Notes under the pieces: model-generated
Told to the model about the DNA's origin: nothing
What the model saw: the letters and a program-made list of their open reading frames with translations, nothing else
Databases searched by the model: none
Assembly: GCA_963716395.1 (NCBI GenBank)
Contig: OY970309.1
Coordinates: 2,144,001 to 2,208,000, forward strand
DNA length: 64,000 nt
Source of the DNA: an uncultured Fibrobacteria bacterium
Lineage (GTDB): Bacteria; Fibrobacterota; Fibrobacteria; UBA11236
Reading direction: 5' to 3'
Translations under genes and position numbers: made by a program
Shown here: positions 24,960 through 64,000 of the stretch, one piece after another
Numbering within the stretch: position 1 is the first letter of the stretch
How the letters are laid out: every line of letters begins with the position of its first letter

Positions 24960-24975
24960 ACGCCGGGAAATTCTG

Positions 24976-42349: not shown

Positions 42350-45300
42350 TTATTCCTCCGAAATCGCGTTGATGGAATAGGCGGGGAATTTCACTTTTTC
42401 CCCTTGCCGCAGCGTGCGTTTCTCGATGGATCCGCCTTGCGCGAGATTCGCCGAATCCAACTGCCGCCAGGTTACGGCGCCTTGGAATCCGGGAATTTTC
42501 ACATCGGCCATCACCGCCGTTTTGGGATATTTATTGATGAACAACAGAGTTTTCTTTCCCGCCGGGTTGACGGTTAAATAGCAACTCGTTTGATCATCGC
42601 CGGTATTGCATTCCACCAGCCGTCCGCGCAGACTTTCGCTGGCCAATTTAAAGGCGTAATAGGAAGGGCGGGGAACATCGTCGCCATCGGGAGCCCCGGC
42701 GCGCGACAGGTACCCGTAATCTCCGCCTTGCTCGGTGATGTTGTTCTGAATATCCCAATAATCGGCCTGGGCGATATTGTACCGGGCCAGCATTCCCAAA
42801 TAGTCCGCCACGAACAGACCATTGACGAGGCTGAGAGTTTGCGGCCCAGGGTTCATGGACACGGAGTTCCATTCCGTGAGCCAGAGCTGGTAGTGCTTTC
42901 CCGGAGCCCCGTACTCCGTCAATTGATGCCGTAAGTCGGGAATGATTTCGTTCAGGCTTTGCGGGGCCGACAATAAGCCGACATCATTTTCTTCTCCGGG
43001 AGTCTGGGGATAATGGTGTACGCTCACGGCATCGGCCAAATCCCGGGTGTACTTGAAAACCTCTTGGTTCCAATCCCCTTTCAAGACCCAAACCACCGAG
43101 ACCAAAATGGAGGGATCGACGGCCTTCATGGCCTGGATGAATTCCGCGGCGCGCTTCCCGTAATCCTCTCCGGTGGTGTGGTTGGGATGCCAATCGCCAT
43201 AAAGCTCGTTGCCGATTTCCCAGTAGCGCACGTGGGCTTTCTTCTCCACGTTCACGTAATGCACCCAGTCGGCGGCTTCCTGGGGGGTGCCCGTGCCGAA
43301 GTTCACCGTAATCATCGGTTCGGTACCCGTGCGGCGGCAATACGCCAGGAATTGGTCGGTATTCACCAACCCGTTCCCATTCTTCATGACCTCTTTCCAA
43401 TGATCCACGTCGGCGCGCAACCCGCCCGGATAGCGCAAGACTTTATGGTCAATGGCCTTGACATAGCCTTCGGTTTTGGGATTCAACAAATCGCCGTCCC
43501 AAAGCGCGGCGTTGATTCCGAAAATGCCGTCGTTGATGTGCTGGGTTACGGTCTGGTTCCAATCGCCGGTCACGGTGATTTCTTTTTGGGCCAATACCGG
43601 AGCTTTCTTCACCTCGCGTTGATTGGTGAGGGAGACATCGTCGATGAGGTAGGTTCCCCGGGTGCCGTCTCCCGCGGGTTTGAAATCCAGACTCATCACA
43701 TTGTCCAAATCGAATTTTCCGTTTTGCACCGCGTCCGGCGGTTGATAATAGGCGAACTTGGTGAAATCCTTGAAGGGCAGGATGATTTCGTTCCAACCCT
43801 TGGTGCCGCCGACATTGGCGTCGAAAATCTCGTCGCCGGCGTCATTCACCTGAACCGTAACTCCCTGGTACGCCCTGTCGGTGTATAAGAAGAAACGCAG
43901 ACCCCAATACCGGCTCCAATTCCGTTGTTGCGCCGGACGGTGGTTTTTGGCGTAATCAAACATGACGTCGCACCAGTCGGCCAATTGATAATCGATCGAC
44001 AAAGACTTTTTACCATGACCCATGCCCTTGGCCGCGACGATGGAGGCCGTCACTTGGGATTTGGGCCCGTGGTCGGTCGCCCAACCCTGATCCGCCGGCC
44101 CTTCGAAATCGTGCAGCAGCACATCCGGCGCCGTCGAATGGAAAGCGGCCCAGTACGCCTCCGGATCCACGTATCCCGGGATGGAGTCGACCAGCACCAT
44201 ATCATCCACGTAGAACGAGGCGGGCTGGGTGGAGTCGACCTTGTTCTCTCCCTTGTTGACGGAAAAGCGAATCTCGTTGATTTCATCCCAGCGTACCGGG
44301 GCGGAAATCTCGGCCTTGCGATCCGCATCCCAATACAAGCCGGTGGCTCCGAAACGCTTCAAGGGGATTTGGTAATAATGCCAGGTCGTATCCACGGGGC
44401 CGAAATCACTCAACACCACCTTGGTTTGCACCTTGATGTCATTGCCTTCATTGTCCAGCAGGCCCACATAAATCTTTTGCACCCCCGGAACGCCTTTACC
44501 CCAGAAGGAAAGACCCGCCGTGCCTTGGCGCAATTCGGTTAAATCGAGGTTATGGCCTTTACCCAGGGCCAAGGTGACGCCCGAATAATCCCCATTGTCG
44601 AGATAGCAGGCCAGAATCCCCGGATCCTCCTGGGAACCGGGCTGCACCTTGACCGCGGTTTTCCCGCCGTAGACATAGGTGAAAGCGCCGGCCGGAATTT
44701 CGTCGCGGAACAGGGTATGCACGACATGTCCCTTATCGCCGCGAACCAAGGGCGGGGTGATGGTCTCTTTCTTGTCTTCCCAGTATTCCTGATGCGATTC
44801 CGGTTTCGCGGCAAATACATCGCGCAACACGAAAATATCGTCGACCCAAATCCGGAAGGCGGTGTTGTCGCCTTTTTTGATTTCAACGCGAAACTCCGCG
44901 ACGTCATCCCAATCGAAAGGATTGGGCAATTCCACCTGTTTATGGGGGTCCCAATACACACCGCGGCGGGAGAAATCGGAAAGGGGAATGCTGACCAAAC
45001 GCCACGACTTGGTAATGCCGCCATAGTTGTTCAAGGGAAGGCGCACCACGGTTTTTTTGCCGTCGCGCGTTTCTCCGTCCACCAAAGAGACCCAGGCGAT
45101 TTCGCCGCCGTGCGCGCCTTTGACCCAAAATTGCAGCGCGCCGCGGGCATAATACGGCGTCAAATCATAAGACATGTTGTAAAGGCAGACCGCTCCGCCG
45201 GAATAGTCATTCGGATCCAAATCGAATTGCAAGGAGACTTCGCTGTCATGGCCCGATTCTTCCGGGATATAAACCTTGGACGCGTCGGGATAGGAATACT

Positions 45301-45511
45301 CATACCCCCCCGCGACAAAATCATCGTCGAAGAAACGGTAGACGACGCGGGGATCGACATGCTCCTGCGTGGCGCCCGTGGCGGCCTTGGCGGGCGTCGG
45401 CAGGGGCTTGAATTGCAGGGCACATCCGGCCAAAACCAGAACGGCCAGAAGTCCGTCCCACCATGGCCCGGGCGCCTTGCCGACGCCCAATGTCCGACGA
45501 AAATTTTGCAT
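42350..45511 (-). CDS. Lipoprotein endoglucanase: two CBM30-like modules, a CBM11-like module and a GH51-like catalytic domain (Fibrobacter CelF/Cel51A-like)
   Basis: Lipobox LAGC; duplicated DYSG..FW.KG..W....IPL..F...G.YWD modules; LLHDFE..YQP..NG.FDL; LRYPGG, WEIGNE, LTEWN. Confidence 0.82.
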   Translation of the reverse strand: MQNFRRTLGVGKAPGPWWDGLLAVLVLAGCALQFKPLPTPAKAATGATQEHVDPRVVYRFFDDDFVAGGYEYSYPDASKVYIPEESGHDSEVSLQFDLDPNDYSGGAVCLYNMSYDLTPYYARGALQFWVKGAHGGEIAWVSLVDGETRDGKKTVVRLPLNNYGGITKSWRLVSIPLSDFSRRGVYWDPHKQVELPNPFDWDDVAEFRVEIKKGDNTAFRIWVDDIFVLRDVFAAKPESHQEYWEDKKETITPPLVRGDKGHVVHTLFRDEIPAGAFTYVYGGKTAVKVQPGSQEDPGILACYLDNGDYSGVTLALGKGHNLDLTELRQGTAGLSFWGKGVPGVQKIYVGLLDNEGNDIKVQTKVVLSDFGPVDTTWHYYQIPLKRFGATGLYWDADRKAEISAPVRWDEINEIRFSVNKGENKVDSTQPASFYVDDMVLVDSIPGYVDPEAYWAAFHSTAPDVLLHDFEGPADQGWATDHGPKSQVTASIVAAKGMGHGKKSLSIDYQLADWCDVMFDYAKNHRPAQQRNWSRYWGLRFFLYTDRAYQGVTVQVNDAGDEIFDANVGGTKGWNEIILPFKDFTKFAYYQPPDAVQNGKFDLDNVMSLDFKPAGDGTRGTYLIDDVSLTNQREVKKAPVLAQKEITVTGDWNQTVTQHINDGIFGINAALWDGDLLNPKTEGYVKAIDHKVLRYPGGLRADVDHWKEVMKNGNGLVNTDQFLAYCRRTGTEPMITVNFGTGTPQEAADWVHYVNVEKKAHVRYWEIGNELYGDWHPNHTTGEDYGKRAAEFIQAMKAVDPSILVSVVWVLKGDWNQEVFKYTRDLADAVSVHHYPQTPGEENDVGLLSAPQSLNEIIPDLRHQLTEYGAPGKHYQLWLTEWNSVSMNPGPQTLSLVNGLFVADYLGMLARYNIAQADYWDIQNNITEQGGDYGYLSRAGAPDGDDVPRPSYYAFKLASESLRGRLVECNTGDDQTSCYLTVNPAGKKTLLFINKYPKTAVMADVKIPGFQGAVTWRQLDSANLAQGGSIEKRTLRQGEKVKFPAYSINAISEE

Positions 45512-45532
45512 GCTCAAGCCGTGTTCCCGGGG

Positions 45533-47536
45533 TTAAAAAAGCACGTGCAGAAAGAGATCGGTTTGCAATTGGGAGAAATTCTGATCCGGCAGGTAGCCGG
45601 TGTAATCCATGGAGATGAGTCCCAGGGAAAAATCCACATAGGCCCCCGCCGCGACTTTATATTCGGCGCCGCCCGCCAGGTTGCGTTGCGTGGAAGAATG
45701 CACGGCTCCGGCGACGGTGATGTCGGTTTTGATCTGTTGGTAACCGCCCATCAGGGCCGCGCGCTTCCAGAACTTGTAATACAAACTGGCGTTGGTGAAA
45801 TCACTGGTGACCTTGCGCGCCGCGTAGGTGGTGTCGGCGGCGATTCCGGCATTGTTGGCTCCGGATTGCACCAGGCTTCCCGACAGGGTCAGCGGATTCT
45901 GCAGCCCCAGCATGGAACCGATTTCCAATTTGAGGCCGCCGCCGTATTGGGAATAATCCGTGATGGGCAGCACTTCATTCGTGCCCACGGCCACTCCGGT
46001 GACGTTCTTCAGGCTGGCGAACAGCCCTTTGATTTGCAGGCGGTTCTTCCACACGTTGACGGTGGCATCGCCGGTCAGGCCGGTGCGGTTCGGCGTCGCG
46101 GGGCCGAAGGGCATCACCAGTTGCACGGCGGTATCCAAACGCGAGGCGGCAAAGGCGGCCATCTCCCGTTGGGTCATGATGGAGTTGGAGTACGAAAGCT
46201 TTTGAAAGGGCGCCCGCGCCCAAAGATTGGTCCCCAATTCGGGTGTGAACTTGAACACGGTCCGGTACATGGCGTCGAAGGTGGTGTAGTCGCGCGAGGA
46301 AACGTTGTCGGTGCGCACCTTGGCCGAATCGTTTTCGATGTTCATGATGCGCTGGCCGATAAAGGTGGGGCTTTGCGCCAGGGCATTGTGGTAATTCGCG
46401 TCGTTGCGGATGAAGTCCACGCCCGCGCTGAAATTGAAAGCCTCCGCGAGCGCGGCATTCCCGTGGACGCGCGCCAGCAACGCCGATCCGTTCTTAGCAA
46501 ACGGCGTCGCCGACAGCGAGTCGCCGAATACCGGAAAATATTCGGGCCGGTCCTGCGAAGCGGCATATTCCGCCGAGATGCCCGCGCCCCAATTCGTCAC
46601 CCCGAGCAGCGGCGCCAATTCCAAGCCGGCGCGCCCGTCGAGAATCGAAGTGTTTTGGGCCAGCGAATCGGCGCCGGCCACATACTCGTAGGTTGAATTT
46701 TTGTCGAAGATGAGCATGGCGCTGCCGCCCAGGGAAAAGCCTTTGGGAAAAACGGCTTCGAGATTGGTGGCCGCCAAGTATTTCTCCACCGGGGATTCTT
46801 CGATCTGGTCGGTGGGAAAATCGCCGTTGGCGATATCGGTTTCCACGTTGCGCAGCCGTGAACCCATGGCGTTAATATGCAACTCTTTCAGAATGCTGTT
46901 TCCGGTGGGCGCGTCCACGCCGGCGTCGAAATTGAAATTCACGCCTTGCAAAATCCGGTCGTTATTGCCGAGGAAGACCTCGTCTTCGGCCTCTTGCCGT
47001 TGGGTCTGAAAAATCTCGGGTTCGTACAATACGGAAAGCTCCGGCGCCCACAGCGTGAGGGGACTATAGCGCTGCCGGTATTCGCCGGCATCGTAGCTGA
47101 ACATGCTTTTCACCTTGCCGTCCAGACTGAGCCAGCGGGTGAAAATGGGATTGCTGATATCGGAAAAGAAATTGCGCCAATCCTGGTGCATGCGGAAAAT
47201 CACATGCCCCTGGGTCGCGGTATTGGGCCGGGCGTGGATGTCGAAATCCACCGAAGTGAATTCGGCGGTTTCATCCGATCGCAGATCCGAAATGAGGCCC
47301 GGGCCACTGAGGGACGAATTCAAATATTCCGAACGAAACACGCCGCCGATGGAAATGCCCTCTTTGGCTTGAATGGTTTCCAGGGTTTTCATCACGGAAT
47401 CCGCCACCGAGGTGGAATCCTGGGACCAGGACGAAATCGGGGAGGCGGCGCCCACCAGCAACCCCAACAGGATCAGCCCGATCTCCCCGGAACGCGGAGC
47501 CAACGGGGCTTTGGATGCGAATCGGAATGGGATCAT
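45533..47536 (-). CDS. Outer-membrane beta-barrel protein of unknown family (barrel 2)
   Basis: GGAG RBS, signal peptide, amphipathic strands, C-terminal TDLFLHVLF. Confidence 0.75.
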   Translation of the reverse strand: MIPFRFASKAPLAPRSGEIGLILLGLLVGAASPISSWSQDSTSVADSVMKTLETIQAKEGISIGGVFRSEYLNSSLSGPGLISDLRSDETAEFTSVDFDIHARPNTATQGHVIFRMHQDWRNFFSDISNPIFTRWLSLDGKVKSMFSYDAGEYRQRYSPLTLWAPELSVLYEPEIFQTQRQEAEDEVFLGNNDRILQGVNFNFDAGVDAPTGNSILKELHINAMGSRLRNVETDIANGDFPTDQIEESPVEKYLAATNLEAVFPKGFSLGGSAMLIFDKNSTYEYVAGADSLAQNTSILDGRAGLELAPLLGVTNWGAGISAEYAASQDRPEYFPVFGDSLSATPFAKNGSALLARVHGNAALAEAFNFSAGVDFIRNDANYHNALAQSPTFIGQRIMNIENDSAKVRTDNVSSRDYTTFDAMYRTVFKFTPELGTNLWARAPFQKLSYSNSIMTQREMAAFAASRLDTAVQLVMPFGPATPNRTGLTGDATVNVWKNRLQIKGLFASLKNVTGVAVGTNEVLPITDYSQYGGGLKLEIGSMLGLQNPLTLSGSLVQSGANNAGIAADTTYAARKVTSDFTNASLYYKFWKRAALMGGYQQIKTDITVAGAVHSSTQRNLAGGAEYKVAAGAYVDFSLGLISMDYTGYLPDQNFSQLQTDLFLHVLF

Positions 47537-47547
47537 TTTTACTCCTA

Positions 47548-49911
47548 TCAAAACCACATTTTAATTTCCGCCGACATCAGCACCGCGGTCCAGTCATTGT
47601 CGGTGTAATTCACGTCTTCGTGTTTCATCCACTTCAGGCGGCCGTGCAGGCCGGCCCGGGTGACGAAGTCCCAATCAAATCCGATTCCCGTGGCGTAGTC
47701 GCGGTAATCGATGGGGACCTTGGTCACGATTCCCGTCTGGGAATTCTGCATGTAGGCCAGGTCGGACCGCCAGTTTTCATAGCCCGCCAAACCCAACAGA
47801 TAAAACTTGTCGCTCAGCGCCAGGGCCGGTTCGAAGCGGAAATAGGTGCCCCACAACAGCATGTCGCCGGGGCCGAAGGCCGCCGGTTTGAAGGTGGTGG
47901 AAACGCCGTTCAGGGAGAAGAAAGCGCTCAGGAAAAAATCATGCGCATAGCCGATTTTCGGGCCGAGATCGTAGGCGCCGTCCATGTCGAAATTAAACGT
48001 CCACTTCTGATGGTCGGGCACGTAGGGGGAGGAGGTGAAAATCGTGGTGGCATTTTTCGCCAGGGTATTCGAGTCGGCCTGGGCGGCGTTTTCGTAGGGC
48101 ACAAAACCCTCGTACATCGAGAGGTAATCGCTGCGCAGGCCGCCGGCATCGGGCCCCTCGGGGGTGCCGGATTCCTGCGTGTGGTAACTCTCATCGCCCA
48201 GCCGCTTCTGGTATTTGGAATTCAGAGACACGTCGATGAGGTCGTTTCCCCAGCGGTTATAGGAGGATTGAAAAACGCTGCTCAAATCCTGCCCGTTCAA
48301 ACGGTAGGGAAAGAAGATCAGGTCGCGCGCGGATTCGAGCTGAAAATGTTGGCCGTAATCGATGCGTAAATGCCCATACCCCACCTTGGGGGATACCGTG
48401 AGCAGAATGCCGGCCATATTTTGCGTATAGGGAGACGCTTCTCCGCGCTCAATGAATTTACCGGCGCCCAGCAGATTCGCGCCGAAGGGGAAGAAGGCAT
48501 CCACGGGCGCGGCAAAGGAAAAGGGGGAGTAGAAGCCTTTGGGAATTACGGCGACATCGGCTTGGATGGGCAGCCGGGCCGTGTTTCTCACCATCAGGTA
48601 AAGCGCCGGATGCAGGGGGGTGCGCGTCTCGGTGATGCGCGTACTCGGCGCATACTGGTACAAGGTTTGTCCCAGCGAGTCGTGCTGGGAAGAGTCTACG
48701 GTATATCCGTTGTGGAACATGGTCGTATCCACAAAATTCACGGCCAGGTCCGATTGCATTTCCCAGTGGTCTCCGATGGGCCCCTTGACGTCGATGGAAT
48801 AGGTTTGCGGCTCTTTGTAAAACCCTTTGCCGGCGGGTACGCGCACGATTTTCCCCGAATACGGATCGATGAAGACCGAATCGCCGATCTGAAAGTTCCG
48901 GATAAACAACGGATCGAGATTGATATCGCGTTCGTAGATGATGCCGACGGCATTGAGCCCCACGGTCAGCTTGCCGATGGCGTCTTGCTGGGCCAGGCGG
49001 GCATGCCACATGTGCCGGTACGAATCGCCGATGCCCAGCGACTTGGCGGGGCCGGTTTCGTCGGCATAAGCCAGGTCATTGGAAAAGTCGATGTATTCGC
49101 GTTCGAAATTATCGTAGTTCTCGAAACCCGCGAAGAGAAAATTGAAATACAGATTCGCGGGCAGGTTGATGCTTTCGAGATTGATGCCGTTAAACGCTTT
49201 CTTGTTCCAGGCGGCGCGGCCGGTTTTTGCGCCCTTGGCCATGTCGTATTCGTAGTAGCGCTCGATGGGTTGTTCGACTTCGAAGGGGAGATAATCCCAG
49301 GCGAAGATTCGGGGCTGGGATTTCCAAATGGTCAGCGGCGAGGCCTGGGTCCACATGATGTTTCCCATCTTCAGCCAGAACGAGGCGGGAACGGTGCGGA
49401 TGGCGATGCCGGCGGACATGTCTTCGTCGATGGTGGCGGTTTGATCCGATTTGTCGTGGAACGATTGCGCCTGATTAAACCCGTCTCCATTCGGATCGAT
49501 GGCATAAGAGTTGGTGAAATTGCCCGGAAACGTGTTTTGAAAACCGATTTTGGACCACAACACCACATTGCGGCCGGCCCGGGCCACCATGCCCAGCCGC
49601 AGCATGGATTCGTTTCCCTCCCAGTTCGCCTGGGCCCAACTCACGTCCTGTTCGAGAAAGGTGGGATGATCGGAAAAATCATGCTCCTGCATTTTCAACC
49701 GGGCCAGGCCCGAAAAAGAAACCGGCGACGATCCGCCGAACAGCAGGGTGGATTGCACCTTGGCTTCCAGCGAATCCAAGGTCGACTGCGTGAGGTCTTG
49801 GGAACTGGCCGGGGTGAACAGGGAAAGAAAGGCGGGAAATAAAATGGCGGCTCCCAAGAGCCGAATCCCGGACGGGGCGGGACGAAGCGCCCGCGAAGCG
49901 TGGATTTGCAT
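47548..49911 (-). CDS. Outer-membrane beta-barrel protein of unknown family (barrel 1)
   Basis: Signal peptide, aromatic-rich amphipathic strands, C-terminal LMSAEIKMWF. Confidence 0.75.
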   Translation of the reverse strand: MQIHASRALRPAPSGIRLLGAAILFPAFLSLFTPASSQDLTQSTLDSLEAKVQSTLLFGGSSPVSFSGLARLKMQEHDFSDHPTFLEQDVSWAQANWEGNESMLRLGMVARAGRNVVLWSKIGFQNTFPGNFTNSYAIDPNGDGFNQAQSFHDKSDQTATIDEDMSAGIAIRTVPASFWLKMGNIMWTQASPLTIWKSQPRIFAWDYLPFEVEQPIERYYEYDMAKGAKTGRAAWNKKAFNGINLESINLPANLYFNFLFAGFENYDNFEREYIDFSNDLAYADETGPAKSLGIGDSYRHMWHARLAQQDAIGKLTVGLNAVGIIYERDINLDPLFIRNFQIGDSVFIDPYSGKIVRVPAGKGFYKEPQTYSIDVKGPIGDHWEMQSDLAVNFVDTTMFHNGYTVDSSQHDSLGQTLYQYAPSTRITETRTPLHPALYLMVRNTARLPIQADVAVIPKGFYSPFSFAAPVDAFFPFGANLLGAGKFIERGEASPYTQNMAGILLTVSPKVGYGHLRIDYGQHFQLESARDLIFFPYRLNGQDLSSVFQSSYNRWGNDLIDVSLNSKYQKRLGDESYHTQESGTPEGPDAGGLRSDYLSMYEGFVPYENAAQADSNTLAKNATTIFTSSPYVPDHQKWTFNFDMDGAYDLGPKIGYAHDFFLSAFFSLNGVSTTFKPAAFGPGDMLLWGTYFRFEPALALSDKFYLLGLAGYENWRSDLAYMQNSQTGIVTKVPIDYRDYATGIGFDWDFVTRAGLHGRLKWMKHEDVNYTDNDWTAVLMSAEIKMWF

Positions 49912-50100
49912 TTAAGAATAATCGATCCGTGCTAGTGTGGGGTATCTCTTCTCATGGCAATTTCCGCCTGCGGCGGACCGATGAAGCGAGACACCCCCAA
50001 ATTGGTATCCGTTCTCGGCGAACGGGTTTGAATTTTTAAAAAATTAATTCCGGGGAAACGCGGCCGGTTTTGGACTCAGGCATGCTTGTGAGCAACGTTT

Positions 50101-51480
50101 CTAAACCAATCGATTTTGCCGCATCACTTCGGAATACCATTTGCCGCTTTCCTTTACAATTCGGCGTTGGGTGGCGAAATCCACATGGACGATTCCAAAC
50201 CGTTTCGCGTATCCTTCCGCCCATTCGAAATTGTCCATCAAGCTCCAGGCGAAGAATCCGGCCAAGCCGATGCCTTCCGCCGTCGCCCGATGCGCCTCCG
50301 CAAGATATGCCCGCAGCCATTGCAGCCGGTCCAAATCCACCACGCGACCTTGATCGTCGACGCGATCGTCGCAGGCGCATCCGGCCTCGGTAATGTAAAA
50401 CTTCTCGACTCCGTACACTTCGCGCGCATGTCGGCACCCCCAATACAAGGCCTGCGGCACCTGCTTCAGCCAATCCAGCGCCATGGTCGGGTATTCGAGA
50501 GGGAATTCCATCTCTTCGTAGCCTTTGTCGTCGGCGGCTTCCCGGATATAGGTCCCGGTATAGACATTGACGCCCAGGAAATCCACCGGCTGGCGCATCT
50601 GCTCCAGATCTCCCGCCCGGATTTCCGGAGCATCGGCGCCCTGTTCACGCAGCCACCAGTCGGGATATCCGCCTTGGAACAAGGGCTGCATCAGTCTTCC
50701 GTTGCGTCGGATATATTTCTTGCGCGTGGCTTCCAAGCAGGCGGGGGTTTCCATCAAAGGCACGGGAATCCCCGGTGAATCGACCACGCCGATTTCCGCT
50801 CCGGGCTTGGCTGCGGCCCGCAGGAGTTGCACCGCCAAACCATGCGCCAGAAAAACATGGTGATAGGCTTGGTTCATCATTCGCGGGCCGAGTTGCAGGC
50901 CCGGGGCGTGAATGCCTTGCTGATACCCTTGGCCCAGGAAGATCGTGATTTCGTTGAAGGTCATCCAACTCGGCACGCGATCTCCCAACCGTTGGGCCAC
51001 GGCTTGCACGTACTCTCCGAAGGCCGCCACGGTTTCGCGATTGCACCAGCCGCCCCGATCCTGCAAGGGTTGGGGCAAATCCCAGTGGTATAAAGTCGCG
51101 CAGGGCAGGATGTTTTTGGCCAACAGGGCGTCGACCAGGCGGTCGTAAAACTCCAGCCCTTTGGGGTTCACGGCCCCGGTTCCCAAGGGCACGATGCGCG
51201 GCCAGGCGATGCTGAAACGGTAGGCTTTTACGCCCAGGTCGGCCATCAGGTCCAAGTCTTGTGGCCACCGATGATATTGATCACAAGCGGTTTCGCCCGT
51301 ATCGCCGCCGATCACCTTTCCCGGCGTGGCGCAGAACGTATCCCAAATGCTTTTCCCCCGGCCGTCGGCACGGGTGGCGCCTTCGACTTGAAACGCCGAA
51401 GTGGCCGCACCCCACTGGAATCCATCCGGAAATTTCCGGTAGTCGCGTTGCAGGGGTTCCTGAATCAGAGGGTGGGACAT
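50101..51480 (-). CDS. GH1 beta-glucosidase, cytoplasmic
   Basis: FQWGAATSAFQVEG, TLYHWDLP, TFNE, YITEAG, WSLMDNFEWAEG; no signal peptide. Confidence 0.95.
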   Translation of the reverse strand: MSHPLIQEPLQRDYRKFPDGFQWGAATSAFQVEGATRADGRGKSIWDTFCATPGKVIGGDTGETACDQYHRWPQDLDLMADLGVKAYRFSIAWPRIVPLGTGAVNPKGLEFYDRLVDALLAKNILPCATLYHWDLPQPLQDRGGWCNRETVAAFGEYVQAVAQRLGDRVPSWMTFNEITIFLGQGYQQGIHAPGLQLGPRMMNQAYHHVFLAHGLAVQLLRAAAKPGAEIGVVDSPGIPVPLMETPACLEATRKKYIRRNGRLMQPLFQGGYPDWWLREQGADAPEIRAGDLEQMRQPVDFLGVNVYTGTYIREAADDKGYEEMEFPLEYPTMALDWLKQVPQALYWGCRHAREVYGVEKFYITEAGCACDDRVDDQGRVVDLDRLQWLRAYLAEAHRATAEGIGLAGFFAWSLMDNFEWAEGYAKRFGIVHVDFATQRRIVKESGKWYSEVMRQNRLV

Positions 51481-51500
51481 TTCGGCGGCTCCTTTATTTT

Positions 51501-51538
51501 AGGGTACCTCTAAAAATGAATTTCATTAGAGGTACCCT
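51501..51538. repeat. 38-bp hairpin made of the two MITE ends
   Basis: AGGGTACCTCTAA-aaatgaatttca-TTAGAGGTACCCT; TTA flanks GGG...CCC on both sides. Confidence 0.75.
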
Positions 51539-56817: not shown

Positions 56818-57008
56818 GATTGGAAACCCCGCAATCTTAGTGGAGGGAAAAACCATTCCGGTTCAAACCGAGACTCGGCCTGTGTGCTGAAAATCTTGGG
56901 AAAAATCGAACCTGGAGGCGGAATTTCTAACTAATTGGGAGAGTCAAAACGCGTTGGATGCAAGGGCGGCTCACAGCGGGCCTCGTTTCTCGATTGCAGG
57001 ATTGGTGA

Positions 57009-58088
57009 ATGGCCGAGGTATTGCTCAAGAATATCAACAAAGTCTATGACGGAAACGTGGTGGCCGTCAAAGACGTCAGTCTGGAAATTCGCGATCGGGA
57101 ATTTATGGTGCTGGTCGGCCCTTCGGGGTGCGGCAAATCCACCTTGTTGCGGATGATTGCCGGTTTGGAAGAGATTTCGGCGGGCGATCTCATCATCGAC
57201 GGAAAGCGCTGCAACGAGGTGGCGCCCAAAGACCGCGATATCGCCATGGTTTTCCAGAATTACGCGCTTTACCCGCATATGACCGTGGCGCAAAACCTGG
57301 CCTTCGGCCTGAAACTGCGCGCCATTTCCAACCAAGAAATCCGTGCGCGCGTGCGCGAAGCGGCGGAACGGCTGGGATTATCCGAATTGCTCCACCGCAA
57401 GCCCAGGGCCCTTTCCGGCGGGCAACGCCAGCGCGTAGCCCTGGGCCGCGCCATGGTGCGAAAACCCAAGGTCTTCCTCTTCGACGAGCCGCTTTCCAAC
57501 CTCGACGCCAAACTTCGCGTGCAAATGCGGGTGGAAATCGCCCGCTTGGCCGCCCAGTTGGAAACCACCATGATTTATGTCACGCATGATCAAACCGAGG
57601 CCATGACCTTGGGGCATCGCATCGCCTGTTTGCGCGGTGGGGAAATCCAACAGTTGGGGGCGCCGCTTGAACTTTATAAACACCCCCAGAATGCTTTCGT
57701 GGCGGGGTTTATCGGCATGCCGCCCATGAATTTTTTCCCCTTTCGCCTTGAGGGCGAAACTTTGATCGTTCCCGGCACGCGGGGCAATTGGAAACCCCGA
57801 CTCTCCGAACTGCGCGCTCTGCCGGGTTTTTCACCCGCGAAGTCGATGCTGGGAATTCGCCCCGAACATTTGACCGTCGCCGGGGAAAACGGCGCGGGAC
57901 TTGAAGCCGACGTGGATATCGTGGAACCTTTAGGCGCCGAAACCATGGTGTATTGCCGGCTGGGCGATCTCAAAGCGGTGGCGCGCTTGCCGGCCGAGAC
58001 CACCCTGCGGCGCGGCGACAAACTTTCTTTGGTGCCTCTGTCGACCCACCTGCATTTTTTTGAACCCATTCAGGATACCCCATCATGA
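57009..58088 (+). CDS. Sugar ABC transporter ATPase (MsiK/MalK-like)
   Basis: GPSGCGKST, VFQNYALYPHM, LSGGQRQR, FDEPLSNLDAKLR, YVTHDQ, GIRPEH. Confidence 0.95.
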   Translation: MAEVLLKNINKVYDGNVVAVKDVSLEIRDREFMVLVGPSGCGKSTLLRMIAGLEEISAGDLIIDGKRCNEVAPKDRDIAMVFQNYALYPHMTVAQNLAFGLKLRAISNQEIRARVREAAERLGLSELLHRKPRALSGGQRQRVALGRAMVRKPKVFLFDEPLSNLDAKLRVQMRVEIARLAAQLETTMIYVTHDQTEAMTLGHRIACLRGGEIQQLGAPLELYKHPQNAFVAGFIGMPPMNFFPFRLEGETLIVPGTRGNWKPRLSELRALPGFSPAKSMLGIRPEHLTVAGENGAGLEADVDIVEPLGAETMVYCRLGDLKAVARLPAETTLRRGDKLSLVPLSTHLHFFEPIQDTPS

Positions 58089-59480
58089 AGAAAAAAATCG
58101 CGACTCTTTCCGCAGGCATCGGTTTGGCAGCCGCCGCTTGGCTCTCGGCCTGTCACGCAGAAAAAGGCCAAGCCGGGGCGCCCGACCAAACCGTGCGCAT
58201 CTGGATCATGCCCAATACCCCGAAACCCGAAACCGATATGCAAGCGGTTTTGCAAGGGTTTCAAGCCGATCATCCGCATGTGCGCTTTGAAATAACGGTC
58301 TTGGATTGGGGCAGCGCGTGGACGCGCATCACCACCTCGGCCATCTCCGGCGACGGACCGGACGTGATTCAATTGGGGAGCACCTGGGCCTCTTCGCTTA
58401 CCGATTTGGGCGCCCTGCTTTCCCTGGATGATTTGCAAGACTCGCTGCACGTCATGAATGACTTCCTTCCCGCCACGCGGGAAATCATGCACCCGCGTTT
58501 CGCGCAGCATGTCACTTCTCTGCCGTGGTTTTTGGATGTGCGTCCGCTGTTTTATCGCGCCGACATTTTCCGCAAGGCCAAAGCCGACCCCGCCACGATG
58601 AATACCTGGGATGGTTTTGTCGCGGGCCTGGAGAAAATCAAGCAGGCCAAAATCCATGATGAAAACGGGTTGGTCGAACCCATCGGATTTCCCGGTAAAA
58701 ACGATTGGAACGTGGTGCATAACTTCGCGCCCTGGATTTGGGGAGCGGGCGGGGGATTTTTAAACGCGCAGGGCGATCAATGCATTCTGAATCAACCCGA
58801 ATCCATGCAGGGCATTCTGTTCTATCTGAGCTTGGTGCGCAAAGGGTTGAACAACCCTTCCAATTTGGAGAAAAACACCGCGCAGATCTCCTCCGAATTC
58901 GATGCCGGGCATTTCGCTTCGATCTTCGAGACCACCACGAAAAATGTTTACCTCAATCTGCCCCCGGAACAGGGCGGTATCGGTAACGCCGAGGTGGCGC
59001 AGAATTACCAAGTCGCCATGCCGCCGGCCGGCCCGAAAAAACAGGTGTACTTCATGGGCGGTTCCCAATTGGCCTTGTTTCGCTCGTGCAAGAATCCGGC
59101 CTTGGCGAAAGAGCTGGTGTTGTATCTCTGCGCGAATAAGGCGGCCCAATTGCAGTATTCCAAGCTTATCCGGTTTTCTCCCGGCTTCGCTGGCCGCCTT
59201 GGATGACCCGTATTTCGTGCAAGACCCGAAGCGCAAAGTGTTCAAGGCCATGGTGGCTTACGGGCGCTTTTATCCCAGCGTTCCCTATTGGGCCGAAATC
59301 GAAACTTCGGTGCTGACGCGCCGCCTGGGAAACCTTTTCGACATTGCCGCCGAAGTGAATGGCCCCTATTCCGAGGCCAAGGTCCGCAAAGAAGTCGACG
59401 CGACGGTGCAGGAAATCGACGAAGTGATCCGGCAATATTTTGTCGCCCATCCGCGCCACCCGATGCCCGGGAAGCTTTGA
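58085..59480 (+). pseudogene. Sugar ABC solute-binding lipoprotein split by a one-base frameshift near 59165-59172 (real lesion or assembly error)
   Basis: Lipobox LSAC, GPDVIQLGSTW, PWFLDVRPLFYR, GGSQL; the C-terminus (GFLPA..DP..PYWAEIE) continues in the +1 frame to TGA 59480. Confidence 0.85.
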
Positions 59481-59486
59481 GTATCG

Positions 59487-60422
59487 GTGATGGGTCTTCT
59501 CCGGCGCACCTTCCGCCGTCACCGTGCCGCTTACACCTTCCTGGCGCCGGCGGCCTTGGGCATTTTGTTGCTGCAAGCGTTTCCCCTGTTGCAGGGCATT
59601 TATCTCAGTTTTCTGCGCAGCCGCAAAGACCTGTTGCTGAAATACCTGTCGGCGCCCTTCATCGGCCTGGAAAATTATCGCGAGATTCTCTTTAATCCCA
59701 ACAGCCCGCTGCGCTCCGGTTTAGGCGATGCCATTCGCAACACGGTCGTCTATACCATCACCGTGACCGCCGGAACTTTTGCCGTGGGCTTGGCGGCGGC
59801 CCTTCTGGTGAACCGGAACTTTGCCGGGCGCGGCCTGGCGCGCACCTTGATGTTGTTCCCCTGGATTGTCCCCACCTATGTGGTGGGCCTGCTGTGGGGC
59901 TTCCTCTGGCAGCAAGACAGCGGCCTCATCAATTTGATTTTGGTCAACGGACTGCATCTGTTCCATACGAAACCGGTTTGGCTGATTGGCCCCAACACCA
60001 TTTGGGCCATCGTGATTCCCACCATCTGGCGACAATGGCCGTTTTCGATGCTGATGATCCTGGCGGGCTTGCAGGGAATTTCCAAAGATGTGTATGAAGC
60101 GGCCCAAATCGACGGCGCCAATCCCTGGCAAAGTTTTTTCCGCATCACCTGGCCCTTGTTGACGCCGGTCTGGGCCATTCTCATCCTCAACGGACTGATC
60201 TTCAACGTGTATTCCTTCAACATCGTCATCATGATGTTCGGCAACGGGGCGGGCTTTCCGGGTAAGTACGGCGACTTGCTGATGACCAATGTGTTCCGCA
60301 ATTCCTTTCAGATGTGGGATTTCGGCGGAGGGGCCGCCATGGCTTCGTTAATGATGCTGGCCATGTTCGGGTTGATTCTGATTTGGTACCGCGTTTTCCG
60401 CAAACATCTTTCGGTGAAATAG
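59487..60422 (+). CDS. Carbohydrate ABC permease (MalF-like)
   Basis: FIGLENY, PWIVP, YEAAQIDGA EAA loop, about 6 TM segments. Confidence 0.93.
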   Translation: MMGLLRRTFRRHRAAYTFLAPAALGILLLQAFPLLQGIYLSFLRSRKDLLLKYLSAPFIGLENYREILFNPNSPLRSGLGDAIRNTVVYTITVTAGTFAVGLAAALLVNRNFAGRGLARTLMLFPWIVPTYVVGLLWGFLWQQDSGLINLILVNGLHLFHTKPVWLIGPNTIWAIVIPTIWRQWPFSMLMILAGLQGISKDVYEAAQIDGANPWQSFFRITWPLLTPVWAILILNGLIFNVYSFNIVIMMFGNGAGFPGKYGDLLMTNVFRNSFQMWDFGGGAAMASLMMLAMFGLILIWYRVFRKHLSVK

Positions 60423-60427
60423 CGACG

Positions 60428-62269
60428 ATGTCCCTGCTCCTGCGCCGGCGGCTCGTCGCCACTCTCTTGAACCTGGCGACGGTTTTGGTGGTGGGGATCA
60501 ATCTCGTTCCCATTGCCTGGATGATCTATTGCAGCTTCAAAGACAATAACGAAATCCTTTCCGGCAAGGTTCTGCCGGGCCGGCGCGACTACACCGTGGT
60601 CTTTCTTTCCCGGCACGCAGGCGATATTTTAATCGGCGCCTCCGACGGCAGCCTGACGTTGGCCGATACCATCGACCTTTCCACCGTTCGGGAGAAGCGT
60701 CTGGGGACCTTCTCCACCCATTATCTCAGGGATGGGGAAACCCTGTGGGTGCTCAGCGCCAACAAAGGCTTGTTGGAATTGGATTGGAAAACCCTGTCGC
60801 TGCGCCATCGCTATTCCGTGGGCGATATGGCCTCGGCTTATGGACCCGGATGGAAAACCCTGTGGGTGAATGACGTGGCGTCATCGAGCCTCGCCCGCAG
60901 CGGGGATAAGCTGTACTTCGGCTACCAGAACGCCAATTTTCCCGGGTTGGCGTACTTGGATTTAACCTCGCGCAAATTGGGGTTCGTCCGCGGTTTTTCC
61001 ACCGCGGAGAACGGCCGGCTCCGTGAACTGCAATCGTTGCGCAATGGAAATCTCGCGGTGCTGACCGACCAGGGACTGTGGATCGGGAACGGAACCGATT
61101 TTCACTCCGCCTGCGGGCACTGCGCCACATGGCCGGAAACCTTCGATCACCTCGTCGCGGCGGATTCGCTGCTGATCTTGGATCGTTCCGGGTCGCTGTA
61201 TTTTTACCATCCCCAACAGGATTCGGCCTTCGTGTACAGTACGCCGAATGCATCCGGCGCGGCCAATGCGTTCGCGCTGCCTTCCCATTTCTCGACCCTG
61301 CTCTGGCAAGGGTCGGACTTGTGGGCCGGATATGCGCAGGGGGCCATGCGCATTCCGCAGTCCTGGTTCTCCGGAGACACGACGCAGCCGCCGTGGGTTT
61401 CGGTTCCCGCGCAAAGCCCCGGCTACGAGGGGAACGGCGAGGTGGCGGGCATGGAAGTGACCTCCATTCTTCCTTTGACCCGCGGCGGCTTTCTGTTCGG
61501 CGGCCGCAAGGGAACGCTCTCACGCGAGTCTTTGGGCCGGTTGATCCACGTCAAAACGCCGCCATCTCCCTGGTATTTCCGCTGGCGCAATTACGTGGAT
61601 CTGTGGCGCAACATCGACTTCGGGTTGTACTTGAAAAACAGCCTGATCGTCTGCGGTACGGTCATGCTGTTCGCGGTCATCTTCGCCTCCATGGGCGGTT
61701 ATGCGCTCGCGCGCTACGAGTTCCCGGGAAAAAACTCCTTCAGCATGTCGGTATTGGCGACGCAAATGGTGCCGGGAATTCTATTGCTGCTGCCGATTTA
61801 TCTCATGTTCGTGCAAATCTCCAAAGTGACGGGATTCCAATTAAAAGGTTCGTATACCGGTCTCATTTTCACCTATACGGCGTATTTCGTCCCCTTCTCT
61901 ATTTGGATCTTGCGCGGCTTTTTCGCTTCTTTGCCCAAAGAGCTGGAGGAGGCGGCCCTCATCGACGGGTGCGGTCCTCTGCGCGCCTTTTTCACCATCA
62001 TCGTCCCCTCCGCCTGGCCGGGGATCATCGCCACCGGCATCACGGTTTTTCTTTCCTGCTGGGACGAATTGATGTTCGCCTGGGTCTTGACCAATGAAAC
62101 CACGGCCACCTTGCCGGTCGGTATTCGGCTGTTCGTGGGGAACTATCAAAATCGTTTCGATTTGATGATGGCCGCGGCCACCATTTCCACCTTGCCCCCC
62201 ATGATTCTCTTCTTCCTCATGCAAAAACAAATCGTCGCGGGGCTCACCGCCGGCGCCGTCAAAGATTAG
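60428..62269 (+). CDS. Carbohydrate ABC permease (MalG-like) with a large extracytoplasmic insertion
   Basis: TM1 plus SFK, about 330-aa beta-rich insert, then NY..NS, GYALAR, LEEAALIDG, GLTAGAVK. Confidence 0.9.
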   Translation: MSLLLRRRLVATLLNLATVLVVGINLVPIAWMIYCSFKDNNEILSGKVLPGRRDYTVVFLSRHAGDILIGASDGSLTLADTIDLSTVREKRLGTFSTHYLRDGETLWVLSANKGLLELDWKTLSLRHRYSVGDMASAYGPGWKTLWVNDVASSSLARSGDKLYFGYQNANFPGLAYLDLTSRKLGFVRGFSTAENGRLRELQSLRNGNLAVLTDQGLWIGNGTDFHSACGHCATWPETFDHLVAADSLLILDRSGSLYFYHPQQDSAFVYSTPNASGAANAFALPSHFSTLLWQGSDLWAGYAQGAMRIPQSWFSGDTTQPPWVSVPAQSPGYEGNGEVAGMEVTSILPLTRGGFLFGGRKGTLSRESLGRLIHVKTPPSPWYFRWRNYVDLWRNIDFGLYLKNSLIVCGTVMLFAVIFASMGGYALARYEFPGKNSFSMSVLATQMVPGILLLLPIYLMFVQISKVTGFQLKGSYTGLIFTYTAYFVPFSIWILRGFFASLPKELEEAALIDGCGPLRAFFTIIVPSAWPGIIATGITVFLSCWDELMFAWVLTNETTATLPVGIRLFVGNYQNRFDLMMAAATISTLPPMILFFLMQKQIVAGLTAGAVKD

Positions 62270-62391
62270 AGGCGTTCGGCCATCACGGCCTCGCCGTGAA
62301 CGCGTCGTGAACGAAGAGCCGCTTCGCCGGTTCGGATCCGGCGCGAAACCGCCGGTCCCGGAGCGCGCGTCAGGTGAAGATAACGGCCTAT

Positions 62392-62413
62392 TCCGCCGTC
62401 GGCGGATCTTTTT
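62392..62413 (+). terminator. Intrinsic terminator after the ABC operon
   Basis: TCCGCC-gtc-GGCGGA followed by TCTTTTT. Confidence 0.55.
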
Positions 62414-62567
62414 GGTGGGGCGGGCTTTAGTAGAAAAAGGCAACGCCATGCGGCGCATTTTCAGGCAGAGGCGGACGAAGCCGGAAGCAGGTGCAGGTTT
62501 GCCCGGTCAGGTGCGAGCACAGCCGGGTCACCGAAAAGATTAAACGACGAAGTCCGCCGCCCGCGCC

Positions 62568-64000
62568 CTATCGCCGCACAAATCCGAAAGACAAGACTTT
62601 AACGACGGATACCGGGCTCTGGCCCAAGTTTGCATTCAGGGTCGTGGCATCCAGGGCGATGCGGGCCAAGTAAGCGCCGGTTCCCGCCAACTGTCCGGTT
62701 TGCGAGCGACCGTTCCAGACGATTTTGATCTGGTAGGTTCCGTCGGACCTCCGGAGAAAATCTCCGGCTCCCGGAATAGGCGCGTCGTTATTATCTACGC
62801 CCAATTGGGCCGCGGTGATATTGCCGGAAAAGACATTTACGAATTCGGCCAGATTGGTATACAGCGTAATTTTGTAATTGACCGGACGATCGATATTCAA
62901 GGTCAGGGTCGGAATTTGGAATTTGCCCGAAGTGTCGGTGGTAATCGACGAGCCGCAATTCAAACCCGAGCAGTCGTAGGCGATATGGTTATTGCTGCCC
63001 TGGATGGGCAGCCAGTTCGTCCCGTCCTTGGTTCCCATGACGACGAAGTCGGTTTGCGAATTTCCCAGCGTTTGGAAAAACGGCTTGTCCGGCGAGACCA
63101 CCAAGGTGGGTGGCCGCGGAACCGGATGAAAGCCCAAAACCACCGGGCGGTTCAACGGATTGGGAAGATTGCCATAGACATCGCTGATGGGCCCCTGCGC
63201 ATTCAGCTTCAGCGAATCTCCCGATACGGGTGACTGGCTTCCCAAGTCTTCCACCACCACCTTATACCCGCCCGACGCGGTATCCACCGACCGAATGGAG
63301 AAGGGAATGGAATCCCGCGTTCCCTGTTTAATCAACACCAGGGAAGCGCCCGACAAAGAGGATTGGGGAATCGCTTCGCTGAAGAACACCAGCAAAGTAT
63401 CGGGCCCGCTGCCGTACTTTTCCCACACGATGGCGCTGTCCACCAGCGGGCCGACGGAATCGGCCAGGATCAGGGGAGAGGATTGCTCCGGCGCGCCGGC
63501 CACGGCCACATGGGTGTACAACACTCCCGGAGAAGTCGCTGAGTTGGAAGCGGTGATGCCCGCCGGAAAGGGGTTGGACAGGAGAACCGTGACGTGTTTC
63601 AAATTGGTTGCGTCAAGGGTGATGCCGCTGGACACATGCCGGGGCGTAGCGGTGCTGTCGGGCCAATAGAGCAGGACCGAATCCGGCGCCACCGCCAAGG
63701 GATTGACGAGGTAAATATCCGCGCGGTTGACGCTTCCGGTTCCGTCGTCGGCGAAATAGGCCGCCGACTGTACGGCCAAGGGCGGCGGCGGCAGAATAAG
63801 GAGCTTCAATACCACCGGCCGATTCAAGGCATTCGCCTTATTGGTGTAGAGATCGGTGAGCGGACCGGCCGGATTTATTTGCAAAGAATCGCCCGGCAAG
63901 GGTACGTCGGTTCCGCCGCTGGTCACGGTGACACGGAAATCAAGCCCGGTCGTGTCGAGCGCCGTGGCCTGGGTGACGGTCAAGGGAACGGGAGTCGCGT
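62568..64000 (-). CDS. C-terminal part of a large secreted fibro-slime-type repeat protein (truncated by the window edge)
   Basis: Frame open to 64000; repeats GDSL..N..GP..D.Y.N..N.LNRPVVL; tail WNGRSQTGQLAGTGAY similar to the GH9 tail. The fibro-slime domain itself is not visible. Confidence 0.7.
   Translation of the reverse strand, partial: ATPVPLTVTQATALDTTGLDFRVTVTSGGTDVPLPGDSLQINPAGPLTDLYTNKANALNRPVVLKLLILPPPPLAVQSAAYFADDGTGSVNRADIYLVNPLAVAPDSVLLYWPDSTATPRHVSSGITLDATNLKHVTVLLSNPFPAGITASNSATSPGVLYTHVAVAGAPEQSSPLILADSVGPLVDSAIVWEKYGSGPDTLLVFFSEAIPQSSLSGASLVLIKQGTRDSIPFSIRSVDTASGGYKVVVEDLGSQSPVSGDSLKLNAQGPISDVYGNLPNPLNRPVVLGFHPVPRPPTLVVSPDKPFFQTLGNSQTDFVVMGTKDGTNWLPIQGSNNHIAYDCSGLNCGSSITTDTSGKFQIPTLTLNIDRPVNYKITLYTNLAEFVNVFSGNITAAQLGVDNNDAPIPGAGDFLRRSDGTYQIKIVWNGRSQTGQLAGTGAYLARIALDATTLNANLGQSPVSVVKVLSFGFVRR

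Follow-up and report, generated by a model that had tools for sequence, protein, structure and literature searches.

A candidate Sus-independent beta-glucan utilisation locus around a phylum-wide outer-membrane gene triad in an uncultured member of the Fibrobacterota

Introduction

Fibrobacter is among the most active cellulose degraders known. According to the accessible sections of PMC6851124, it is not known how cellodextrins pass its outer membrane; a TonB-dependent barrel was proposed there, in the latest proteomic model, and the authors could not identify one. The present report deals with a cluster of carbohydrate genes on a 64,000-nucleotide (nt) stretch of DNA from an uncultured Fibrobacteria bacterium (GenBank assembly GCA_963716395.1, contig OY970309.1, positions 2,144,001 to 2,208,000), which is called the window below. 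At the centre of this cluster is a triad of minus-strand genes that encode two large outer-membrane beta-barrel proteins, designated barrel 1 and barrel 2, and a lipoprotein similar to Cel51A of Fibrobacter succinogenes. With a probability of roughly 0.6, the cluster is a utilisation locus for cellulose or beta-glucan in a high-GC member of the Fibrobacterota, arranged around a phylum-wide outer-membrane triad and independent of the starch utilisation system (Sus). Its conserved core would consist of two large plug-less, TonB-independent barrels of phylum-specific families and a Cel51A-type lipoprotein (CBM30-CBM11-GH51; CBM, carbohydrate-binding module; GH, glycoside hydrolase).

On related proteins already described, the following is reported in the accessible parts of the papers cited. 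Cel51A of F. succinogenes S85 (endoglucanase F or EG2; Fisuc_3111 = FSU_0382) is composed of CBM30, CBM30, CBM11 and GH51 (PMC4668043 Table 1; PMC6851124 Table 1). The protein is associated with the cell envelope, its gene is the most highly expressed gene for a carbohydrate-active enzyme (PMC6204037, PMC4668043), and expression is constitutive (PMC6204037). It is listed among the confirmed cellulases (PMC6851124 Table 1). Binding proteins for cellodextrins have been described from Thermotoga maritima and Clostridium thermocellum. The former, tmCBP (4jsd), binds cellodextrins and laminarins (PMC3850815). The latter, CbpB, binds cellobiose to cellopentaose (G2-G5), is part of the sole cellodextrin transporter of C. 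thermocellum, and was compared with the beta-glucoside-binding protein of Thermus thermophilus (PMC9601137).

Gene order in the window and in related loci

Open reading frames (ORFs) were listed, and Pfam (E<=0.01 unless stated otherwise) and NCBIfam searches were applied to the 12 ORFs in 38-64 kb of the window; PDB sequence searches were added for the lipoprotein. In the triad, the gene of barrel 1 (787 aa, 47548-49911, minus strand) is followed on the same strand by that of barrel 2 (45533-47557; an ORF of 674 aa, or 667 aa from the ATG at 47536) and by that of the lipoprotein (1055-aa ORF at 42350-45517, gene 42350-45511). Between the stop of barrel 1 and the start of barrel 2 there is either an overlap or a gap of about 12 nt, and barrel 2 is followed after 21 nt by the ATG of the lipoprotein gene. 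This tight spacing suggests that the triad genes are co-translated.

With Pfam, neither the SusC-type combination of plug (PF07715) and barrel (PF00593) nor a SusD-family neighbour, as expected for a Sus-like polysaccharide utilisation locus (PUL), was found in the 12 ORFs, and none of them matched TonB_dep_Rec. Cohesin and dockerin domains, as expected for a cellulosome, were likewise found in no ORF of 38-64 kb. A first-pass annotation of the window, made from the DNA letters alone, had placed GH9, GH1, barrel 1, barrel 2 and a CBM-GH51-like lipoprotein on one strand, with GH10 just downstream, had recognised no TonB-dependent receptor, SusD, cohesin or dockerin, and had called the cluster SusC/D-independent. 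The gene assignments were borne out by the Pfam, NCBIfam and PDB searches, the absence of the named families was confirmed, and the designation as SusC/D-independent holds.

Fifty-three related loci were collected by a scan with the barrel-1 alignment, one genome being used per species. Their neighbouring genes were identified by tblastn with the proteins of the window and of three of the loci (L002, L009 and L018). Nearly all loci originate from metagenome-assembled genomes (MAGs) labelled Fibrobacterota, Fibrobacteria, Chitinivibrionales, Chitinispirillaceae or Fibrobacteraceae. L039 bears the label Thermodesulfovibrionales (Nitrospirota); it groups inside the Fibrobacterota sequences on the barrel-1 tree, which suggests that it was mis-binned. 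L053, labelled Draconibacterium orientale (Bacteroidota), is the most divergent (36% identity).

Barrel 2 was found directly behind barrel 1 on the same strand in each of the 48 loci with at least 1 kb of sequence beyond barrel 1; the remaining five run off the contig. A Cel51A-like gene directly behind barrel 2 was present in 42 of 42 evaluable loci and, in part, in one more. An ATP-binding cassette (ABC) importer is encoded at most 10 kb upstream in 48 of the 53 loci, where some of the matches are fragments at contig ends, the Opp genes of L047 are 6.9 kb away, and L038 has no upstream sequence. The importer is of the CUT1 type in 10 loci and of the Opp type in 38, in the latter case on the same strand (26 loci) or divergent (12 loci). 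The Opp type comprises one or two SBP_bac_5 proteins, two permeases and two ATPases, one of them with oligo_HPY. Downstream of the lipoprotein gene, 28 loci have at least 2.5 kb of sequence; GH94 follows directly in 14 of these, and GH9 occurs downstream in seven. In the termite-gut Chitinispirillales (L016, L028, L033, L036), a GT35 glucan phosphorylase gene stands after the Cel51A-like gene, followed in L028 and L036 by a gene similar to enzyme I of the phosphotransferase system.

A tree of barrel 1 was calculated with FastTree from 51 rows, namely the window and 50 loci; three loci with a best match below 600 residues were omitted. The CUT1 loci cluster on this tree: nine, including the window, form one clade (support 92), L010 and L014 are nearby, and the Opp-bearing L002 stands beside it. 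One or two changes of importer label are needed on the tree, and none of 500 shuffles of the labels gave a number as low. The pattern is consistent with one event in which the lineage of the window exchanged an ancestral importer of the Opp type for one of the CUT1 type. Since kinship alone clusters labels, the tree is read as one or two events and not as selection. In the same lineage GH1 takes the place of the GH94 of other lineages. A GH1 orthologue is divergent from the CUT1 operon in L001, L003, L004 and L008; relative to these, the GH1-ABC block of the window is inverted, and GH9 now lies in between. Because other lineages pair the same triad with an Opp-type importer and GH94, the module of triad, oligosaccharide importer and cellobiose-cleaving enzyme is retained while its inner parts are exchanged.

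Gene order in relatives had been set beforehand as a test of the first-pass annotation, and for the core it came out in favour of that annotation. The core proved collinear and the importer recurrent, and the insert-bearing permease and GH1 recur in the clade of the window. Two of the hydrolases did not share this conservation: GH10 was not found among the scanned neighbours in 10 related loci, and GH9 and GH10 are variable accessories outside the conserved core. Overall, the comparative data strengthen the hypothesis of a utilisation locus well beyond what the window alone provides.

Outer-membrane barrel proteins

Each barrel protein has a signal-peptide-like N-terminus (by eye) with a short predicted helix behind it, and the last residue is Phe in both (...KMWF in barrel 1). 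Neither was assigned to a Pfam or NCBIfam family in the scan of the 12 ORFs. The AlphaFold2 model of barrel 2, based on 48 aligned sequences, has a predicted local distance difference test score (pLDDT) of 82.6 and a predicted template modelling score of 0.82. It contains 22 long strands that start at residue 60, right behind the short helix, a non-beta insert at about 379-483, and no N-terminal plug. For barrel 2, this amounts to a confident prediction of a barrel that has about 22 strands and lacks a plug. The model of barrel 1, based on 31 sequences, is all-beta with a pLDDT of 62.9.

Foldseek searches against the PDB returned outer-membrane barrels only for both proteins (barrels of TonB-dependent transporters, porins, LptD, MtrB, ushers, AlgE, chitoporin). 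Overall template modelling (TM) scores of 0.24-0.40 are generic and single out no family. Barrel 1 matched generic outer-membrane barrels at TM<=0.32. For barrel 2, MtrB (6r2q_B) was the top match at a query-normalised TM of 0.40; ushers, porins, AlgE and chitoporin came next. By signal peptide, C-terminal aromatic residue and all-beta fold, both family-less proteins are outer-membrane beta-barrels. The name 'barrel', given in the first-pass annotation, is supported by the N-termini, the terminal Phe, the models and the Foldseek matches. Leads from the ESM Atlas to 'alginate export', DUF1302 and DUF6029 (scores 0.95-0.98) were not confirmed by Pfam and were discarded.

At least 239 homologues of barrel 1 with 46-64% identity were found, all of them named 'hypothetical' and derived from Fibrobacterota MAGs. 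Among 1.84 billion entries, a profile search retrieved 196 cluster representatives at E<=1e-3, of which 68 reached E<=1e-30. Judged by these searches, the family is small and Fibrobacterota-specific. The Pfam family OMP_b-brl was matched by six of 31 members (best E 7e-7), and Plug, TonB_dep_Rec, SusD, cohesin and dockerin by none of the 31 at E<=1. Mean column identity in the alignments is 49% for barrel 1, 41% for barrel 2 and 65% for the lipoprotein; many aromatic and charged residues of barrel 1 are invariant. Paralogy between the two barrels was not detected, as BLASTP gave no match and hhalign a probability of 7% (E 0.005).

Cel51A-like lipoprotein

The lipoprotein starts with a signal sequence ending in the lipobox LVLAGC, followed by ALQFKPLP. 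On the 1055-aa protein, Pfam matched CBM30 (E 3e-19) and CBM11 (E 2e-25) and gave weak matches to GH79n and ArfA. The best PDB sequence match was the GH51 arabinofuranosidase 3s2c (E 3e-23), besides the CBM11 1v0a and the CBM30 1wmx. The motifs G-N-E (767-769) and T-E-W (879-881) are invariant across 34 lipoprotein sequences. The Glu residues of N-E (768-769) and T-E-W are taken to be acid/base and nucleophile. With CBM30, CBM11, a GH51-type catalytic domain of clan GH-A and two Glu, the protein has the architecture of GH51 enzymes of the Cel51A type, and endoglucanase activity is predicted.

A motif xLQ[FL]KP follows the lipobox in the window protein and in 22 of 33 full-length orthologues (from L002-L051; classified by eye). 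In the remaining 11, the signal peptide is of the ordinary kind and the form FKPLK is retained (by eye). The motif, in its longer form xLQ[FL]KP(L), may be a sorting or docking signal.

In two loci of a divergent branch, the third gene of the triad encodes CBM30 and CBM11 without a GH51 domain (L048, 14727-16619, where the ORF was read; L049, 8883-10757, by the same extent of the alignment). The match to the third gene in L053 (12780-14528) also ends after the CBMs, and the contig stops about 330 nt beyond. Because CBM30 and CBM11 are kept in L048 and L049 where GH51 is absent, what is conserved as a partner of the barrels would seem to be the binding modules rather than the enzyme.

ABC importer and its predicted substrate

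The importer operon of the window is located on the plus strand, divergent from the GH9 gene. It comprises genes for a MalK/MsiK-type ATPase (57009-58088; Pfam ABC_tran, TOBE_2, OB_MalK), a CUT1-family solute-binding lipoprotein (58085-59459; SBP_bac_1), a MalF-like permease (59487-60422; BPD_transp_1, NCBIfam MalF/UgpA) and a MalG-like permease (60428-62269; MalG-type match, with the start at the ATG of codon 39 in an ORF beginning at 60314). All components of a CUT1 importer are present, i.e. SBP_bac_1, two BPD_transp_1 permeases and a MalK-type ATPase with TOBE; the gene of the solute-binding protein (SBP) is frameshifted near 59166-59221. When the L003 orthologue is aligned to the window, its residues 7-393 fall at 58097-59221 in one frame and its residues 375-472 at 59166-59459 in another (64% identity). 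The last approximately 100 residues of the SBP lie in this other frame up to 59459, and the site is free of long homopolymers. The lesion may be genuine, which would make the gene a pseudogene, or stem from a mistake in the assembly.

In close relatives, the orthologues of the importer genes align near full length, and the SBP ORF of L003 is unbroken (484 aa). Identities are 65-69% for the ATPase, which is encoded upstream of barrel 1, 75-76% for the MalF-like permease and 48-51% for the MalG-like permease over its full length. In the latter, about 375 aa are inserted on the periplasmic side between the first transmembrane segment (47-65; the next at 444, by hydropathy script) and the conserved core, which starts at about residue 440; the MalG-type NCBIfam match is confined to residues 438-651. 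No Pfam match to the insert was obtained at E<=1. Repeated hydrophobic, Gly-rich stretches in the insert (window 60509-61633) resemble beta-propeller blades by eye, and the insert is kept in the ten CUT1-type loci.

Substrates were predicted from solved relatives of the SBPs of L009 and L003. The Opp-type SBP of L009 matched the sugar-binding 'oligopeptide' group of T. maritima (4pft, 2o7i, 4jsd, 1vr5) at E values of about 1e-74, the chitin-oligosaccharide-binding protein 1zty of Vibrio cholerae at 1e-27 and OppA at about 1e-8. The CUT1-type SBP of L003, the unbroken orthologue of the window gene, matched 7c63-7c71 (E 1e-101) and CbpB of C. thermocellum (7x0i, E 2e-87). The 7c6x entries are presumably the beta-glucoside-binding protein of T. 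thermophilus. For both SBP types, the nearest relatives of known structure, CbpB and tmCBP, are binders of cellodextrins and further oligosaccharides of beta-glucan, and the same type of substrate is predicted for the window importer by similarity.

The first-pass annotation had described a divergent MsiK-SBP-permease-permease operon that was part of a whole chain of surface hydrolysis, outer-membrane passage, ABC import and cytoplasmic cleavage. The order MalK-SBP-MalF-MalG was found, and the frameshift had been overlooked. As a hypothesis at the level of the locus the chain is supported, with the barrels as its putative import route; in this particular genome it may be incomplete, because the SBP gene is frameshifted. 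Binding of non-beta-glucan sugars by the ABC system, which had been named as an outcome that would speak against the annotation, is disfavoured by the relationship to CbpB and tmCBP.

Proposed function and alternatives

The following sequence of steps is proposed. The lipoprotein, which would be surface-exposed and work together with the barrels, would bind single beta-glucan chains via its CBMs and cut them, assisted by the secreted GH9 and GH10. The resulting cellodextrins would cross the outer membrane via one or both barrels, and the barrels may dock the lipoprotein through its N-terminal xLQ[FL]KP motif; synteny and fold are the basis for both steps. In the periplasm, the CbpB-like binding protein, encoded here by the frameshifted gene, would pass the cellodextrins to the MalFGK-type importer, and GH1 would split them in the cytoplasm. 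Other lineages would use the same triad with an Opp-type importer, tmCBP-like binding proteins and a GH94 phosphorylase in the cytoplasm. Carried further, the barrels and the Cel51A-type CBM lipoprotein would form one TonB-independent machine that captures a beta-glucan chain, cuts it and passes the cellodextrins directly to the periplasm. Such a machine would be a functional counterpart of SusCD made of unrelated parts, ancestral to the Fibrobacterota, and the outer-membrane step of cellulose use in Fibrobacter; this extension is tentative, with odds somewhat below even.

The main rival assigns the barrels to the lipoprotein itself. They would then be a dedicated device for its export, insertion or anchoring, following the logic of Slam translocons, the MtrB sheath or usher pores, and cellodextrins would enter via other porins. 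This fits as well as import does, and is possible, if on balance rather unlikely. The lipoprotein gene is the only invariant partner of the barrels (42/42), also in four loci without a nearby ABC importer, and the motif just behind the signal-peptide cleavage site is kept whether or not the lipid-anchor Cys is there. In Foldseek, barrel 2 is matched best by MtrB, which holds a surface lipoprotein partner, and by the ushers FimD and PapC. Moreover, Cel51A is envelope-bound and shed with membrane blebs, according to the accessible part of PMC6204037. On the other hand, an ABC importer and a cellobiose-cleaving enzyme adjoin the triad in most loci, with two unrelated importer types, which a shared substrate stream explains more easily. 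Similarity to ushers and MtrB is low (TM 0.27-0.40), and import and export roles could coexist.

A second rival concerns the substrate, and is unlikely: the locus would serve soluble or amorphous beta-glucans other than cellulose, such as mixed-linkage glucan or laminarin, or, in some lineages, chito-oligosaccharides. The CBM11 match 1v0a is a domain of 'endoglucanase H' of C. thermocellum. The CBM11 of this enzyme binds mixed-linkage glucans. Many of the loci come from MAGs labelled Chitinivibrionales or Chitinispirillaceae, and 1zty is among the SBP matches. As far as the accessible parts of the sources go, tmCBP and CbpB also bind laminari-oligosaccharides (PMC3850815, PMC9601137), and GH94 includes chitobiose phosphorylases (PMC4704652 table). 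Against this, GH9 or GH5 endoglucanases adjoin the triad in several loci, cellodextrin binders are far ahead of the chitin binder among the SBP matches (1e-74 vs 1e-27), and Cel51A of F. succinogenes, which has the same architecture, is a confirmed cellulase in PMC6851124 Table 1.

A third rival, in which the barrels are general housekeeping outer-membrane proteins that stand near carbohydrate genes by inherited order without functional coupling, would agree with the unusually high conservation of barrel 1 for an outer-membrane protein, with the constitutive expression of Cel51A (in the accessible part of PMC6204037) and with loci in which only housekeeping genes flank the triad, and is nevertheless very improbable, as collinearity is kept at 42-64% barrel-1 identity while the flanks reshuffle by inversions and importer exchange, which points to selection on the triad, and as the close gene spacing suggests co-translation.

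Several observations weigh against a triad-based import of cellodextrins. For a putative conduction of sugars by the barrels, the fold matches are generic and include secretion ushers and MtrB, and the barrel-1 model is of low confidence. The frameshift in the SBP gene means that import may be broken in this genome, or that the assembly is wrong. Four of the 52 loci with upstream sequence have no importer in the 6.9-10 kb upstream: the genes there are of the hydrogenase or housekeeping type in L012, L016 and L036, and GH9 and GH3 in L021. Neither GH94 nor GH9 was found downstream in 10 of 28 loci, the termite-gut lineages having the GT35 phosphorylase instead.

Further points against it come from F. 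succinogenes. Two neighbours of Cel51A, Fisuc_3109 and Fisuc_3110, are annotated as 'hypothetical protein' and belong to the same expression cluster (PMC6204037 Table S2); a DsbA gene is located on the other side of Cel51A. By this position, it may be guessed that they are the barrel orthologues. Their expression profiles are almost identical; mean rlog values in the accessible part of Table S2 are 8.69 and 8.68 (8.2-9.4 on cellulose, 7.7-8.7 on glucose), compared to 13.5 for Cel51A. If they are orthologues, their transcripts are about 4.8 rlog below that of Cel51A and differ by about one unit or less between cellulose and glucose. Fisuc_3109 and Fisuc_3110 are missing from five supplementary files of PMC4668043, and FSU_0380 and FSU_0381, presumed to be the same genes, from three supplementary files of PMC6851124, both of them proteome studies of the envelope; none of the four tags occurs in a main text of the literature searched. 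No homologue named F. succinogenes was among the best 120 matches of either barrel-1 family search.

Accessory hydrolases and other genes of the window

The GH9 protein (1772 aa, 51538-56856, minus strand) is a secreted multidomain endoglucanase by its signal-peptide-like N-terminus and its Pfam matches (CelD_N, GH9 at E 1e-57, fn3-like). Its long C-terminal region is without family, and no Pfam match was obtained for the C-terminal half at E<=1. GH1 (50101-51480, minus strand) is a beta-glucosidase (Glyco_hydro_1, E 2e-144); it has no signal peptide and is therefore presumably cytoplasmic. The accessory GH10 (40918-42039, minus strand; Glyco_hydro_10, E 5e-96) is a secreted xylanase.

At the end of the window, an ORF on the minus strand that is open at its 5' side (62568-64000) encodes the last 476 aa of a larger protein, secreted or at the surface, the N-terminal part of which lies outside the window. 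Neither Pfam nor NCBIfam matched the visible part, not even at E<=1, and the label 'fibro-slime-type', given to it in the first-pass annotation, is therefore left without support. Instead, its C-terminus is homologous to that of the GH9 protein over about 390 aa (27% identity, E 9e-21). The shared module is encoded at 51538-52700 and 62568-63740 and ends with W-N-x-R-S...G-T-G-x-Y. It may be a surface-anchoring or sorting domain for which there is no family model.

Next to the cluster, a protein similar to 3-keto-disaccharide hydrolases (PF06439; 38390-39520, minus strand) carries a type A C-terminal sorting domain of the type IX secretion system (TIGR04183, E 2e-8). On account of this domain, such a system is probably present in the source organism. 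Near the locus in L017 (941-2230), a PF06439 protein is encoded as well. The G+C content is 0.58-0.67 across window positions 1-38000 and 0.53-0.60 in the carbohydrate locus (38000-64000).

In 38-64 kb, Rfam gave zero matches. A scan for promoter-like sites (8 vs 10.2 expected) and terminator-like sites (34 vs 28.2 expected) remained at chance level. Inverted repeats were unremarkable in the three intergenic regions checked. Further upstream in the window, genes for response regulators, GGDEF/EAL proteins and hybrid kinases (21941-27093) precede a flagellin gene (27355-28182, plus strand; Flagellin_N, E 3e-23). The genus Fibrobacter is described as non-motile; the lineage of the window may be motile, as judged from the flagellin gene.

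Comparison with known systems

The triad and the locus were not described in the literature searched (on Fibrobacter and Fibrobacterota, Cel51A, cellodextrin and gene clusters; subscription-only papers were outside its scope), nor in the accessible parts of a phylogenomic survey of the Fibrobacteres and of a study of termite-gut fosmids. For the uptake question raised for Fibrobacter in PMC6851124, as far as that source was accessible, the triad provides two concrete candidate proteins. Both are phylum-wide and are linked to Cel51A homologues and, in most lineages, to importers of the cellodextrin type, which makes the open question experimentally approachable. The two barrels define two new families of outer-membrane proteins. 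The triad may also serve as a marker module for beta-glucan utilisation loci in Fibrobacterota MAGs, where PUL predictors based on SusC/D find nothing.

With F. succinogenes, the locus shares the CBM30/CBM11/GH51 architecture of Cel51A and, as far as the accessible expression data go, the position of this gene beside two co-expressed hypothetical genes, Fisuc_3109 and Fisuc_3110. Different from most of the related loci, the candidate Opp-type transporter genes of S85 are found at the distant locus tags FSU_1687/1688 and FSU_1691.

The transporter B/CbpB system of C. thermocellum and the tmCBP operon of T. maritima have close relatives of the binding proteins found here (E 2e-87 and about 1e-74, respectively), and in both the importer is encoded together with glucanases. 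The C. thermocellum system has no outer-membrane component, whereas the importer of the present locus goes together with an outer-membrane triad, and its MalG-like permease has the periplasmic insert of about 375 aa.

The chitin system of Vibrio consists of a chitoporin, an Opp-type ABC importer for (GlcNAc)2 and GH94. That system and the Opp-bearing loci have in common a sugar-specific channel independent of TonB (putative in the latter), an Opp-type importer with its family-5 binding protein, and a phosphorylase of family GH94; chitoporin was also among the Foldseek matches and the V. cholerae binding protein among the SBP matches. The chitoporin chains are shorter (435 aa vs 667-787 aa), and the present loci have two barrels, always paired with a CBM/GH lipoprotein, without a detectable shared sequence family.

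The Sus-like PULs of Bacteroidota also encode a glycan-binding or glycanase surface lipoprotein beside one or more large outer-membrane barrels, together with finishing enzymes, and the CBM-only lipoprotein of L048 and L049 resembles a binder of the SusD or surface glycan-binding protein type. The differences are the lack of SusC (plug, TonB box, TonB_dep_Rec) and SusD, the presence of two barrels of unrelated, family-less types, and an ABC importer at the inner membrane, where Sus loci typically use a permease of the major facilitator superfamily. The locus is of a known kind, in which an outer-membrane channel, an ABC importer and an enzyme that cleaves in the cytoplasm are combined for the utilisation of a polysaccharide; new are the components at the outer membrane and the fact that they are firmly paired with a lipoprotein of the Cel51A type.

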